A stretch of DNA of 64,000 nucleotides, from NCBI GenBank assembly GCA_017549425.1, contig JAFYUV010000017.1:6384-70383 (forward strand). Reading direction: 5' to 3'. The notes below the pieces were generated by a model. It had not been told where the DNA came from. It made no database searches and worked only from the letters and a program-made list of their open reading frames with translations. The stretch comes from Clostridia bacterium. Its GTDB lineage: Bacteria; Bacillota; Clostridia; TANB77; CAG-465. Positions 25,846-29,188 of this stretch are shown here, in pieces (the first letter of the stretch is position 1; each line of letters begins with the position of its first letter). Position numbers and translations under genes: made by a program.

Positions 25846-26004
25846 ATAAAAAGCTGTTGAGTTATGTAAAATATAATTCGGATAGTTCAATAAAATTAAG
25901 AAAGTATTTTTTGCGTTTTTTGCTAAAAAATACCTCTTAAAACTTGATATTATATTTGACTTATAGTAAAATATATGTGTACTAGAATGTATGGAGGAAG
26001 AACT

Positions 26005-26334
26005 ATGATTTATGACAAATTAATGAAAATATGTTTAGCTATAGCTGTTATTGCTTTTTTGGCTTCTACAGCTTTATTCGCTACTACTGGAATTGAAGTA
26101 AAAGAAGATGTGGTTTTAGATAAAATAATGGTTATATTAATAAATATACAAAAATATTCATGGCCTGTAGCAATTATACTTTTAATATATGCTTTATACC
26201 AATATTATGTTGTTGGTTCAGAAGCGTTTGAGTTTAAAGTTAATGGACAAAGAATGATTATGGGGCTATCTATATTTATGGCTATATTACAAAGTTTGCC
26301 ATTAGCTTACGCATTTATAACTATAGGACTATAA
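26005..26334 (+). CDS. pilin-like small membrane protein (signal-like N-helix + 2 TM)
   Basis: MIYDKLMKICLAIAVIAFLASTALFA then two more hydrophobic helices; reminiscent of TrbC/VirB2-type pilins; RBS GGAGGA before ATG 26005. Confidence 0.35.
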   Translation: MIYDKLMKICLAIAVIAFLASTALFATTGIEVKEDVVLDKIMVILINIQKYSWPVAIILLIYALYQYYVVGSEAFEFKVNGQRMIMGLSIFMAILQSLPLAYAFITIGL

Positions 26335-26365
26335 TATTTAATTAAATTTATATGGGGGGACTAAA

Positions 26366-28102
26366 TTGAAAATATTATTTGGATTAAATAATGATGACAC
26401 AGTAAAGAACATTGTAAAATATTATGAGGAAATGTATAAGGAAAAGGTAGAATACAAAAATGTATATTACTTTAAACAAGCTATACAAGAACTTTCACAA
26501 AATGAGTATGATAGATTAGTTCTATTAGAAGAATTAGAGAAATATCCAAATAACAATTATGCACAAATTGATGAATTCTTGTTTAATAATATAGATACAA
26601 TGACAGATGAATTTGATGCTAAAAATATAATTTTTGTGGCATCAGATAGAAGAAAATTAGGAGATGCTTTTTTAGCTAGACTTTTTAATATTGGTGTTTA
26701 TTCAGTACTTACTGGAAATAATAGAACCAAAAGTAAGGTTTGTGAAGTTATAAGCGAGCCTAAAAAGAAAAAAGATGTAAAGAAGTATTATGAAGATACA
26801 AACGAAAGAACTGCTTATGGTAAAGCACAAGTTTCTGAGATAGAAATACAAAGAATAATAAATTATTATCAAAAGCAAAATGGTGTTTCAGATAAATATG
26901 TAGAGATTTTTGATAAAATTGCTGCACAGTATACTAATGAACAACTTGCAATAATAATTGGTTTTTTACCAGAACAAGTAACTACGTATTTGGCTGCTAA
27001 TAGCGAGAAGTATAATCAAGTGTTAAAGTATACTAGTGTTGTAGCTCCAGAAGTTACAGAAGCTAATACAACAGTAGCACAAACAGATTCGGTTACTAAC
27101 ATAAATGTAGAAAGACAGCCACAAATTGTTGAAAAAATAGTTGTAAAACAAATAAATCAACAAGCTCCGGTATTAACTCAAGTAATGGAAAAAGAAGTGG
27201 TAAGATCAGTCTATGAAGTGCCTAAAGATTATAAAAAAGTAGTTTGTATGATAGGAGCACCAAAATCTGGAACAACATTCTGTATAAACGGAATAGCAAC
27301 TATGCTCTTTAGAAGAAACATAAAAGTGGCAATAGTAGATTTGACTAAAAAAAGAGATACATATACTCTATATACTTATGATAATGAAGGGAAAAGAGCA
27401 ATAGCTGCAGAAAGTATGAAATATGCATCGAATGGGTTAAATGAGCCGTTAGTTTATGGCAAGCTTAGTGTTTATACTGGAATACCTGGAGAAGATAGAA
27501 AACATTATAATGCAACTAATGTAGTTCAAACTGCAATGAATCACAATAGTGTTGTTTTGATAGATTGTGATTTCTCAACTCCTGTTGATTATTATAGATT
27601 GGCTCAAGAAATTTATATTGTTCAAGACATGAATGTATTAAATGTAAATCAAATAACCATGTTCTTAAAGGAAATTAAATCTAGAGGAATACCTATGAAT
27701 AAGGTGAAAATCATAATAAACAAACATGTTAGATGTGGACTTACATCAAAAGCTATAATAGATGGAATTGCTACATATAGTAGCTTGGATTTGAACATGA
27801 TAGATCCAGAACCTTTATTTAATACATCTGAAATGCAATATTATATTTTACCGTTTGACCAAGAAAACTATACTAAGTATGTGGAAATGATGTACAAGTC
27901 TAACAATACATTTTCTACTTTTACCAAGGATTTTAGGACTGCATTGGAACAAATAACTAACGCAATATATCCTATAGGTATAACTAAGTCTGAAGACAAC
28001 ACTTATGAGAAACCAAAAAGGAAAAGCTTGAACTTGTTCAAAAAAGCTGGAATGGCCCAAATGAAAAATGAGTCTTCTGGATTTGAAAAGGTTGTAAATT
28101 AA
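26366..28102 (+). CDS. pseudo-receiver domain + degenerate ParA/MinD-like ATPase domain protein (TadZ/CpaE-like architecture)
   Basis: N-terminal CheY-like fold lacking phospho-Asp (LVLLEEL); C-terminal ParA-like fold with deviant P-loop GAPKSGTT; TTG start. Confidence 0.45.
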   Translation: MKILFGLNNDDTVKNIVKYYEEMYKEKVEYKNVYYFKQAIQELSQNEYDRLVLLEELEKYPNNNYAQIDEFLFNNIDTMTDEFDAKNIIFVASDRRKLGDAFLARLFNIGVYSVLTGNNRTKSKVCEVISEPKKKKDVKKYYEDTNERTAYGKAQVSEIEIQRIINYYQKQNGVSDKYVEIFDKIAAQYTNEQLAIIIGFLPEQVTTYLAANSEKYNQVLKYTSVVAPEVTEANTTVAQTDSVTNINVERQPQIVEKIVVKQINQQAPVLTQVMEKEVVRSVYEVPKDYKKVVCMIGAPKSGTTFCINGIATMLFRRNIKVAIVDLTKKRDTYTLYTYDNEGKRAIAAESMKYASNGLNEPLVYGKLSVYTGIPGEDRKHYNATNVVQTAMNHNSVVLIDCDFSTPVDYYRLAQEIYIVQDMNVLNVNQITMFLKEIKSRGIPMNKVKIIINKHVRCGLTSKAIIDGIATYSSLDLNMIDPEPLFNTSEMQYYILPFDQENYTKYVEMMYKSNNTFSTFTKDFRTALEQITNAIYPIGITKSEDNTYEKPKRKSLNLFKKAGMAQMKNESSGFEKVVN

Positions 28103-28123
28103 CAAAGGAGAGAGGTTTTATAT

Positions 28124-29188
28124 ATGATAGCTATAATAATTTTGTTATTATTAGTTATAGTCGCATTAGGAGTGGTTTTATTTATTGTTTTCCAGAAGAA
28201 CAAATATTATAAAGTTGCTCTAGGTAATATGTCTGCTATGGTAATAATGCAAAGAATGTTCGAAATAATGGCATCATCAATACCAGCAAAGAATAAGTTA
28301 GAAGAATTAAATAATGTTATTATAGAAGCATTTGATTCTAAGTATTCTACCTTAGTATTGTTTGATGGTAATGAATATGAAATAAGAGCTTCGAATGTTG
28401 AGGGAGTTTATTTAGATAGTGTTAAAGAATTGGCAGAATCTCAAGAGTTTAAAAATAATGCTCTACAAAATATATCTAAATATTTGGTTGCTACAGGAAC
28501 AAGAGTATTGGGATACAAAACAGCGATGGAGAGATTGATAAAATCAGCAATGTTTTCTCCTATATATTATAACGGTACTTTTAGGGGCTTTTGGCTTTTA
28601 GAGGATAAATTAGAAGGTGCTTATGATTCAATTTCCAAAGAGGAATTAGCAAGATTAAAAGATAATATAGGAGTGTTTATAGAAAGCATATCAAGTCAAG
28701 AGGCTATCGAAAATGCTCATAATACAGATAAGCAAACTGGCTTTTATAATAATCTGTATTTATACTCTAATTTAAGACAAAAGATAGCAACATATTCAAC
28801 ATCGGCTATAGTTTTAATTCAACTTAGTAACTTAACGGAAATAAATGATAAATATGGTAGAGAAGTTGGAAATGTATTACTAGAAAATTCAGCAAAACAA
28901 TTAAAAGAATTGTTAAGTTCGGATAATATTTTAGTAAGATATAGCGGCAGTAGATTCTGTATTGCTTGCCCAGGAACATCAGTAGAATTATTACATAAAA
29001 CAATGGAAAGGTTTATAAGCGCTTTAAAATCTCAACAGGAAATTATGGAAAATGGTGAAGAAGTTTCCTTAGCAGTGAATATTGTAATGCATGATGTTAA
29101 AAAGCAAAGTAATATAGAAAGAGAAATATTTAAAATGGTAGAATATGCAAAAAAATCAAGAGAAGCTAATACTATAAATATTATTTAA
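28124..29188 (+). CDS. membrane-anchored protein with degenerate GGDEF domain
   Basis: N-terminal TM; C-terminal GGDEF fold with RYSGSRF in place of RYGG(D/E)EF. Confidence 0.55.
   Translation: MIAIIILLLLVIVALGVVLFIVFQKNKYYKVALGNMSAMVIMQRMFEIMASSIPAKNKLEELNNVIIEAFDSKYSTLVLFDGNEYEIRASNVEGVYLDSVKELAESQEFKNNALQNISKYLVATGTRVLGYKTAMERLIKSAMFSPIYYNGTFRGFWLLEDKLEGAYDSISKEELARLKDNIGVFIESISSQEAIENAHNTDKQTGFYNNLYLYSNLRQKIATYSTSAIVLIQLSNLTEINDKYGREVGNVLLENSAKQLKELLSSDNILVRYSGSRFCIACPGTSVELLHKTMERFISALKSQQEIMENGEEVSLAVNIVMHDVKKQSNIEREIFKMVEYAKKSREANTINII

Follow-up and report, generated by a model that had tools for sequence, protein, structure and literature searches.

A lysine-less ParA/MinD-fold protein and its small membrane partner in a conserved gene module upstream of ireB in gut Clostridia

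Introduction

The spatial organisation of bacterial cells rests mainly on ParA/MinD proteins, whose hydrolysis-free members, such as TadZ, are poorly understood. TadZ of Eubacterium rectale (3FKQ) reportedly binds nucleotide without turning it over. Here, we analyse a three-gene module on the + strand of a 64-kb stretch of DNA from a Clostridia bacterium (contig JAFYUV010000017.1; the whole stretch is called the window, and all coordinates refer to it unless a relative's locus is named). The module consists of a small membrane protein (gene 1), a ParA/MinD-fold protein whose P-loop lacks the Walker A lysine (gene 2) and a membrane-anchored protein with a degenerate GGDEF domain (gene 3). A preliminary description of the same DNA had stated that no system of this exact composition was known, and our searches, Pfam and NCBIfam among them, likewise found no described system with a matching set of three genes. 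What is new here is a TadZ-like ParA/MinD-class pseudo-ATPase in a new architecture and in a new conserved operon.

In its predicted layout, gene 2 resembles TadZ/CpaE: a receiver-like domain, predicted from topology and without an intact active site, precedes a domain of the ParA/MinD type whose deviant Walker A motif is altered, and distant relatives of gene 2 sit in Tad-like clusters beside CpaB-like and T2SSE genes. Unlike TadZ/CpaE, gene 2 shows no profile-level similarity to these proteins in Pfam or NCBIfam, is about 200 amino acids longer, contains a helical module in addition and a long linker that is disordered, has an obligate upstream partner with two transmembrane helices and, in its chromosomal form, adjoins ireB and not tadA. 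Moreover, a second ParA-like protein holds the TadZ position in the Tad-embedded relatives. The combination of domains that the preliminary description had read as TadZ/CpaE architecture is predicted here too, whereas strict TadZ membership is not supported.

The fold of gene 2 is also that of MinD, FlhG and ParA, with Walker A'-like and Walker B-like aspartates apparently kept, and its basic-hydrophobic C-terminal tail recalls the membrane-targeting sequence of MinD and FlhG. In contrast to these proteins, however, both the signature and the catalytic lysine are replaced, a new lysine is present in the loop, and no MinE, ParB or FlhF-type partner is present. A reading as a plasmid-partition protein was rejected on the defining motifs.

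A MinD-like protein, a degenerate receiver, a degenerate GGDEF domain and a small membrane protein also come together in the BcsQ-BcsR-BcsE-BcsF set, and BcsRQ and BcsERQ structures are among the Foldseek matches of gene 2 (6ybb). The domains are, however, split over the proteins differently, and the present locus has no GIL domain, no inhibitory site (I-site) and no cellulose synthase nearby. As far as tested, the resemblance is one of analogy, not of homology. Gene 3, finally, resembles GdpS and Bacillus subtilis YdaK as a membrane-anchored GGDEF protein that, judged from its motifs, would not act as a cyclase. It differs from both in having one transmembrane helix and an unclassified cytoplasmic domain, and YdaK-type receptors keep the RxxD I-site that gene 3 lacks. 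The match of gene 3 to the staphylococcal GdpS model of NCBIfam is weak (E 2e-7, far below cutoff).

Results

A ParA/MinD fold with a fixed, lysine-less P-loop in gene 2

Gene 2 (26366-28102, + strand) encodes 578 amino acids from a TTG start with a G-rich ribosome-binding site ahead of it. The protein belongs to a large family, with 918 homologues at E<=1e-3 in a 90%-clustered collection and 509 representatives in a library clustered at 50% identity, and about 160 of its alignment columns are invariant among close homologues. Hydropathy analysis shows no transmembrane segment. Family members consist of an N-terminal module (residues 1-225) and a C-terminal module (residues 285-545), between which lies a linker of about 60 to about 700 residues. 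The AlphaFold model used here was built on 42 diverse members and reached a predicted local distance difference test score (pLDDT) of 80 overall and mostly >90 in both globular parts; a run on 22 close homologues (pLDDT 53) was set aside.

The C-terminal domain (residues 286-540; 27221-27985, + strand) was modelled with pLDDT >90. Foldseek matched it to ParA, MinD, FlhG, BcsQ and NifH structures of the Protein Data Bank (PDB) with E-values of 1e-7 to 1e-5 and target template-modelling (TM) scores of 0.6-0.73, the best match being 3ea0 (E 1e-7, target TM-score 0.73). At the sequence level, a profile built from diverse C-terminal domains matched the bacterial tyrosine kinase (BY-kinase) CapB of the CapA/CapB pair in the PDB (E 6e-4), with P-loop, Walker A' and Walker B in register, and a full-length profile of close homologues found nothing among PDB sequences at E<=10. 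Some 755-amino-acid members of the family carry a precomputed match to Pfam CbiA (PF01656), which is marked as faint for P0425.

The P-loop of gene 2 reads GAPKSGTT (G297-T304; 27254-27277, + strand). A298 aligns with the signature lysine and T303 with the catalytic lysine of MinD, in an hhalign comparison with a single Escherichia coli MinD sequence that covers the P-loop segment only at a probability of 11% and served for residue correspondence alone; an extra lysine, K300, lies inside the loop. Essentially all of the 270 family members sampled for a P-loop census show the pattern G[AT]xKxGT[ST]F, so that the replacement of the lysine is fixed and does not reflect ongoing decay. Because a distant, Tad-embedded member (P0392) has kept the canonical Walker A motif GFGGAGKTT, the loss of the lysine appears to be derived. 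Asp325, Thr327, Asp400, Asp402 and Asn452 are invariant among close homologues; D325xT327 (Walker A'-like) and D400xD402 (Walker B-like) align with the A' and B motifs of CapB, the second aspartate of A' being replaced by threonine. We conclude with confidence that gene 2 adopts the ParA/MinD fold and that the absence of the Walker A lysines from its P-loop is fixed. Since both deviant Walker A lysines are lost, we read it, by analogy with TadZ/CpaE, as a scaffold that would bind nucleotide and hydrolyse it barely or not at all, and not as a cycling ATPase.

The N-terminal module (residues 1-135; 26366-26770, + strand) is predicted by AlphaFold to adopt a receiver-like (beta-alpha)5 topology. 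The segment RLVLLEELE occupies residues 50-58, the invariant Glu55 ends beta3 within LLEELE, Ser93 follows beta4, and the lysine expected after beta5 is absent. In a by-eye alignment with the Spo0F sequence, YDRLVLLEELE faces PDLVLLDMKIP around beta3, which presumably lines Glu55 up with the phospho-acceptor and Ser93 with the conserved threonine or serine. The two features that the preliminary description had read from the letters, a receiver-like module lacking the phospho-acceptor aspartate and a ParA/MinD-like fold without the Walker A lysine, are in line with the AlphaFold model, Foldseek and the motif census.

In the AlphaFold model, the receiver-like domain is followed by a helical module that is conserved throughout the family (residues 136-222; 26771-27031, + strand) and by a disordered linker (residues 223-285; 27032-27220, + strand; pLDDT <50). 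The linker varies in length within the family, reaching about 700 amino acids of low complexity, and ends in the conserved EKEVV[RK]..YEVPKDYKK. The protein closes with a disordered tail (residues 541-578; 27986-28102, + strand) with a conserved patch of basic and hydrophobic residues (K/R..[LF]F[KR]K) and, terminally, the motif GFEK; E574 and K575 are invariant among close homologues. The amphipathic moment of the tail is modest, and it is possibly a membrane- or partner-binding peptide that recalls the membrane-targeting peptides of MinD-type proteins.

Linkers of 400-700 amino acids in two relatives, P0132 and P0155 (L080, 1460-4519), contain AT-hook-like motifs (GRGRPRK, KRGRP), and the P0132 linker additionally contains repeated LPG[LF][DE] motifs. 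Both kinds of motif are absent from gene 2 of the window. They hint that some members may bind DNA or make contacts through short linear motifs.

Gene 1 represents a new family of membrane proteins rather than a pilin

The program that listed the open reading frames (ORFs) began gene 1 at 25975, which would give 119 amino acids; the preliminary description also let the module start there, although with 109 amino acids for gene 1. An ATG at 26005 is preceded by a ribosome-binding site (GGAGGAA) 4 nt upstream and gives 109 amino acids, and the homologues are 106-109 amino acids long. Because of this ribosome-binding site, the promoter-like site that ends at 25972 and the lengths of the homologues, the product of gene 1 is assigned to 26005-26334 (+ strand, 109 amino acids). 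The presence of all three genes and the length of gene 1 are thereby as described earlier, and only the start is moved.

Hydropathy analysis shows hydrophobic segments at residues 4-32, 41-61 and 84-109. The N-terminus (residues 1 to about 28) is built like a Sec-type signal peptide, with n-, h- and c-regions, and ends in LFA before TT (VFA before T-T in most homologues). The mature protein consists of two transmembrane helices and a loop of about 12 residues, GSEAFEFKVNGQ, which in the family follows the pattern GSE..E.K..GQ within the longer motif QKYSWP...YALYQ[FY]YV.GSE..E.K..GQ....G..[IV]F....Q.LPL.YAF. No Pfam or NCBIfam family, including the Flp and TrbC profiles, matched gene 1, and all 271 homologues are unnamed and devoid of Pfam domains. 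The family occurs only beside gene 2 homologues. We regard gene 1 with confidence not as a pilin but as a member of a new family of membrane proteins and as the protein that obligately accompanies gene 2.

The preliminary description had likened gene 1 to conjugative or Flp-type pilins on the strength of a signal-like helix and two transmembrane segments. Signal peptide and helices are present, whereas the likeness to pilins does not extend further. Flp pilins are single helices of about 50-60 amino acids; gene 1 has two mature helices and 109 amino acids. Inspection of the sequence found no G/xxxxEY prepilin motif, and a Flp or type IV pilin is ruled out by the Sec-type signal peptide, the two further helices and the lack of prepilin motif and profile match. 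A VirB2/TrbC pilin is ruled out as no profile matched; the likeness is one of topology only, with a signal peptide and then two hydrophobic helices, and gene-1-like proteins near genes of a type IV secretion system (T4SS) occur only in distant loci, where they adjoin a Tad-like block.

Gene 3 carries a GGDEF domain with a dead active site

Gene 3 (28124-29188, + strand, 354 amino acids) begins with a single transmembrane anchor according to hydropathy (residues 1-28; 28124-28207, + strand). It is followed by a conserved cytoplasmic middle domain (residues 29-195; 28208-28708, + strand; for example GFWLLED), for which profile searches of Pfam and the PDB returned no known family. The C-terminal domain (residues 200-333; 28721-29122, + strand) matches Pfam GGDEF (PF00990, E 9e-20) and TIGR00254 (E 2e-17), and many NCBIfam cyclase models match below their own cut-offs. 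A profile of 13 homologues matched solved diguanylate cyclases in the PDB down to E 8.5e-21. Among the profile families named in the preliminary description, GGDEF was accordingly recovered for gene 3, whereas TadZ/CpaE was not for gene 2, nor Flp/TrbC for gene 1 (the proteins were searched against Pfam and NCBIfam and matches were listed to E<=1).

The domain has SGSRF at residues 274-278 (28943-28957) in place of GG[DE]EF, as had been noticed earlier, and IQLSNL in place of the metal-binding DIDxFK. Set against the PleD motif, the two metal-binding aspartates and, presumably, the guanine-binding aspartate are replaced, and only the asparagine at residue 241 is kept. Where an RxxD I-site would stand, five residues before the GGDEF motif, gene 3 reads SSDN, and close homologues show SNEH, SSET and similar sequences at this place, none of them RxxD. 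In a motif census of 61 homologues, all close homologues were equally degenerate, with the consensus R-Y-[ST]-G-x-[KR]-[FL]. Gene 3 can firmly be called a genuine GGDEF protein whose active site, judged from its motifs, is dead and which lacks an I-site. Relatives with 39% identity (L071, 7899-8960; L072, 7827-8930) are orthologues with intact GGEEF and DIDxFK motifs, and the cyclase was therefore ancestrally active and degenerated within the gut clade. In one sub-clade (L047-L059, L064, L075, L076 and L079), gene 3 is cleanly absent and ireB follows directly after gene 2. Gene 3 is possibly an accessory partner, the remnant of a once active cyclase, and perhaps a sensor or adaptor.

The module is co-conserved upstream of ireB-ruvX

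To assess conservation, we used 79 loci with gene 2 from one-per-species genomes and scored the presence of genes by tblastn. Gene 1 was found adjoining gene 2 in 76 of the 79 loci. Of the remainder, L071 and L072 have a longer, divergent gene 1 homologue with the same two C-terminal helices, and the contig of L074, in which tblastn found no gene 1, ends within gene 2. A gene 3 was detected in 61 of the 79 loci. Together, these counts agree with the co-conservation that the preliminary description had named as a check. The ORFs of genes 1-3 are intact across dozens of species at 37-85% identity. Downstream of the module, ireB-ruvX is found in 79/79 loci and a DUF1292 gene in 73. The same block occurs in distant chromosomal relatives whose gene 2 homologues measure 1019 (L080), 553 (L083), 611 (L086) and 755 amino acids (L087); the L086 block lacks the GGDEF gene, and upstream neighbourhoods differ among these relatives.

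In the window, genes 1-3 are three co-oriented ORFs on the + strand, and gene 3 starts 21 nt after gene 2. ireB (29217-29462, + strand) begins 28 nt after gene 3, and neither a terminator scan nor reading of the sequence detected a terminator in this gap. ruvX (29463-29882, + strand) and the DUF1292 gene (29940-30284, + strand) are co-oriented with the module. Directly 5' of gene 1 lies a sigma-70-like promoter candidate (TTGATA-17-TAAAAT; 25944-25972, + strand; 10/12 consensus matches); sigma-70-like sites in this region are not above shuffle expectation, and the candidate is a consensus match only. Further upstream, a perfect palindrome read from the sequence forms a hairpin, GTCTCAATTTTAAAATTGAGAC, followed by a T-run, TTTTATTT (25814-25845, + strand). 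The hairpin is likely the intrinsic terminator of the preceding small gene and would mark the upstream boundary of the operon; a simple terminator scan missed it because its stem has too few G-C pairs. Genes 1-3 form an operon with its own promoter-like site, which probably reads on into ireB-ruvX. The 918 homologues of gene 2 and the 271 of gene 1 rule out chance ORFs, and we regard it as firm that the operon is real and under selection.

Distant relatives head Tad-like clusters

The most divergent members of the gene 2 family (P0245, P0247, P0391 and P0392) share about 25-28% identity with gene 2, and in four loci (L081, L082, L084 and L085) gene 2 homologues lie inside Tad-like clusters. 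The order of genes in these clusters is a gene-1-like protein of 236-252 amino acids, the gene-2-like protein, a SAF-domain (CpaB-like) protein, a ParA-like protein of 315-343 amino acids and a T2SSE ATPase of about 505 amino acids, followed by two platform-sized membrane proteins, pilin-sized proteins of 54-62 amino acids and proteins of about 150 amino acids. Gene 1 is homologous to the last approximately 73 residues of the 236-252-amino-acid proteins (hhalign probability 95%, E 4e-8). The second, shorter ParA-like protein, which stands beside the T2SSE ATPase in the canonical TadZ position, is weakly similar to the C-terminal domain of gene 2 (E 1.4e-4) and likewise lacks the catalytic lysine. 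A scan of metagenomes for further Tad-embedded relatives gave no confirmed locus. Judged from gene content and order, the gene 1/gene 2 pair is a putative Tad-like accessory in one branch and a chromosomal, ireB-linked and lysine-less pair in the branch of the window.

In the metagenomic loci L084 (1-18914) and L085 (1-18613), the Tad-like block directly follows Gram-positive T4SS genes, among them a TraC-like protein, a VirB4-type ATPase and a large cell-wall hydrolase. With T4SS and Tad-like block adjoining, the two loci look like conjugative elements that may bring along a Tad-type pilus of their own.

The preliminary description had suggested that the module partners a Tad-like locus 12 kb downstream (40857-45766). 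The window contains a pilus-like locus without an ATPase at 40814-45766. By eye, this locus comprises a TadB/C-like ORF that is polytopic and lacks a standard start codon, a 61-amino-acid Flp-like protein, TadE-like N-termini and a CpaB-like reading frame split into 41876-42145 and 42150-42533. Support from Pfam and NCBIfam profiles consists of a sub-threshold Flp1_like match to the 61-amino-acid protein (E 0.0033) and an Athe_2463 domain in a 530-amino-acid secreted protein. When the Tad-like proteins of L082 were searched against the window by tblastn, only gene 2 was found, so that the locus at 41-45.8 kb is not tied to the Tad-embedded clusters. Relatives show no conserved proximity of the module to a pilus-like locus of this kind. 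A partnership of gene 2 with the locus at 40.9-45.8 kb is possible, although the specific pairing that had been proposed found no support; the wider connection to Tad systems is upheld by the distant members that head Tad-like clusters.

Discussion

Proposed role of the module and alternative readings

Building on the observed folds, motif losses, pairing and synteny, we tentatively read the module, with confidence somewhat short of even, as a membrane-recruited, non-hydrolysing scaffold of the ParA/MinD class that derives from a Tad accessory pair and positions an envelope machine. Gene 2 would bind nucleotide without turning it over and form a dimer, as for TadZ. Gene 1, encoded directly upstream, would be its membrane receptor, and gene 3 might also hold gene 2 at the membrane. 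The task of gene 2 would then be to bring a machine that spans the envelope to a defined site on the membrane, or to place it there. Because the gene 1/gene 2 pair is related to the pair that heads Tad-like clusters on Gram-positive elements of conjugative type, a Tad-type pilus is the foremost candidate. Nucleotide binding without hydrolysis, the contacts among the three proteins and the identity of the cargo are the conditional parts of this scheme. As to the cargo, ancestry favours a Tad-type pilus and the invariant linkage to ireB favours a role in the cell wall or in division.

Several observations weigh against the Tad-derived scaffold. No Pfam or NCBIfam model, including those for TadZ, CpaE, ParA, MinD, CbiA and AAA_31, matched gene 2 at E<=1, and TadZ of E. 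rectale was not among the best 50 Foldseek matches. The receiver-like nature of the N-terminal module is a matter of predicted topology only: its profile matched designed helical repeats in the PDB (E 0.01) and no receiver, and hhalign gave a probability of 0.1% against CheY. As the TadZ position in the Tad-embedded loci is taken by the other ParA-like protein, gene 2 is an extra component of these clusters and not their TadZ. Furthermore, no T2SSE-type P-loop ATPase is encoded anywhere in the 64-kb window, and no pilus gene adjoins the module in the window or in any chromosomal relative, where ireB-ruvX is found instead.

An alternative that we consider unlikely is that the module is a device for positioning in the envelope or in cell division, with gene 2 acting MinD-like at the membrane through gene 1 and its own tail, coupled to ireB-ruvX-DUF1292 and organising machinery related to peptidoglycan or division. 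The constancy of ireB-ruvX downstream, in all 79 loci and also in L083, L086 and L087 despite differing upstream genes, would speak for it, as would the missing terminator between gene 3 and ireB, the MinD/FlhG-like fold of gene 2 and the genes upstream of the module in L086 and L087, which encode a PBP5-type carboxypeptidase and a glucosaminidase. IreB of Enterococcus and ReoM of Listeria have a role in peptidoglycan control, which fits such a device. The synteny may, however, stem simply from one insertion in an ancestor, placed in front of a highly stable operon, the deepest members of the family lie in Tad/T4SS clusters and not beside ireB, no MinC, MinE or DivIVA-type partner adjoins the module, and the MinD lysines for ATP-driven membrane cycling are absent from gene 2.

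The reading given in the preliminary description, in which gene 3 binds cyclic di-GMP (c-di-GMP) and signals to gene 2, which in turn controls the downstream Tad-like locus, appears improbable. The GGDEF fold of gene 3 is bona fide, the intact GGEEF cyclase at the same position in distant relatives links the ancestral module to c-di-GMP, and there are precedents both in degenerate GGDEF receptors and in the complex of BcsE (degenerate REC-GGDEF) with the MinD-like BcsQ (6ybb). Known degenerate-GGDEF receptors bind c-di-GMP through the RxxD I-site, however, and this site is absent from gene 3 and from all close homologues. In addition, the metal-binding and, by the PleD motif, presumably the guanine-binding aspartates are replaced, one sub-clade dispenses with gene 3 altogether, and the downstream locus offers a weak Flp1_like match only and no ATPase. 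An Rfam scan of the whole window found no family at the gathering score and no tRNA, riboswitch (including c-di-GMP riboswitches) or T-box. Control of the present-day proteins by c-di-GMP is therefore disfavoured. That the module is a relic of a Tad/T4SS accessory pair from a mobile genetic element, persisting with little function of its own before an essential operon, seems to us quite improbable: the deep branch of the gene 2 family associated with mobile elements and the progressive loss of the Walker A lysine, of the GGDEF active site and then of gene 3 would suit a relic, whereas the three intact ORFs in species after species, the roughly 160 invariant columns of gene 2 and the strictly kept P-loop replacement point to purifying selection. 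Least credible by far is the idea that genes 1 and 2 work as a pair akin to BY-kinases or exopolysaccharide co-polymerases, gene 1 being the CapA-like membrane activator of a CapB-like kinase encoded by gene 2. CapA/CapB is the best sequence-level PDB match of the C-terminal domain, and BY-kinases of Firmicutes are split into an activator with two transmembrane segments and a cytoplasmic kinase, a division that resembles the gene 1/gene 2 pair. This reading nevertheless fails on defining features, because gene 2 has neither the Walker A lysine nor a C-terminal tyrosine cluster; the loop of about 12 residues between the helices of gene 1 leaves no large extracellular polysaccharide co-polymerase domain, and no polysaccharide genes adjoin the module.

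The Tad-derived scaffold can be extended to a bolder claim, which we hold doubtful at present: that genes 1 and 2 are an unrecognised obligate pair of a two-helix membrane receptor and a lysine-less pseudo-receiver/ParA scaffold, once a Tad accessory on Gram-positive conjugative elements, which was domesticated before the ireB operon across an order-level lineage of gut Clostridia and couples the positioning of an envelope machine to cell-wall control. If true, the domesticated pair would represent a new functional subfamily of ParA/MinD proteins. The gene 2 family, for all its size, has no coverage by Pfam, NCBIfam or solved structures, and it is strictly conserved in abundant, uncultured gut Clostridia. 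In the uncultured gut order TANB77, a Tad-like pilus cluster that has two ParA-like proteins of its own has been linked to immunotherapy response (PMC11680825). Should the cargo be a Tad-type pilus, the module would bear on the placement and regulation of such pili. The relatives also form an evolutionary series, from a canonical to a fixed lysine-less P-loop and from an active to a dead and finally a lost cyclase, that may offer a way to follow the decay of signalling and ATPase modules into scaffolds.

Neighbouring genes and further elements of the window

The window has a G+C content of about 28% and contains spore germination and coat genes (GerA, GerAC and SipL by profile search), and the closest database proteins come from metagenome-assembled genomes labelled "Clostridia bacterium". 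The immediate neighbours of the module are TauE genes on the one side and ireB-ruvX on the other, as in the chromosomal relatives. Upstream, a TauE/SafE-type exporter is split into two adjoining ORFs of 129 and 133 amino acids (24861-25653), the first of which corresponds to the C-terminal half of the Pfam model and the second to its N-terminal half; both half-ORFs are kept upstream of the module in 53-55 of the 79 loci. The preceding 554-amino-acid protein (23184-24848), with an N-terminal HD/HDIG domain and a C-terminal region of about 300 amino acids that has no family match, is found upstream of the module in just 15 of the 79 loci.

Still further upstream lies an integrated element resembling inoviruses, that is, filamentous phages (15832-22901), with a G2P/Phage_CRI replication protein (15832-16674), a Zot-like assembly ATPase (20025-20804) and, after the latter, an rve-family transposase (21909-22901). 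At the 3' edge of the window, a VirD4/TraG-type T4SS coupling protein (61460-63448; T4SS-DNA_transf, E 8e-76) suggests that a conjugative element may start there.

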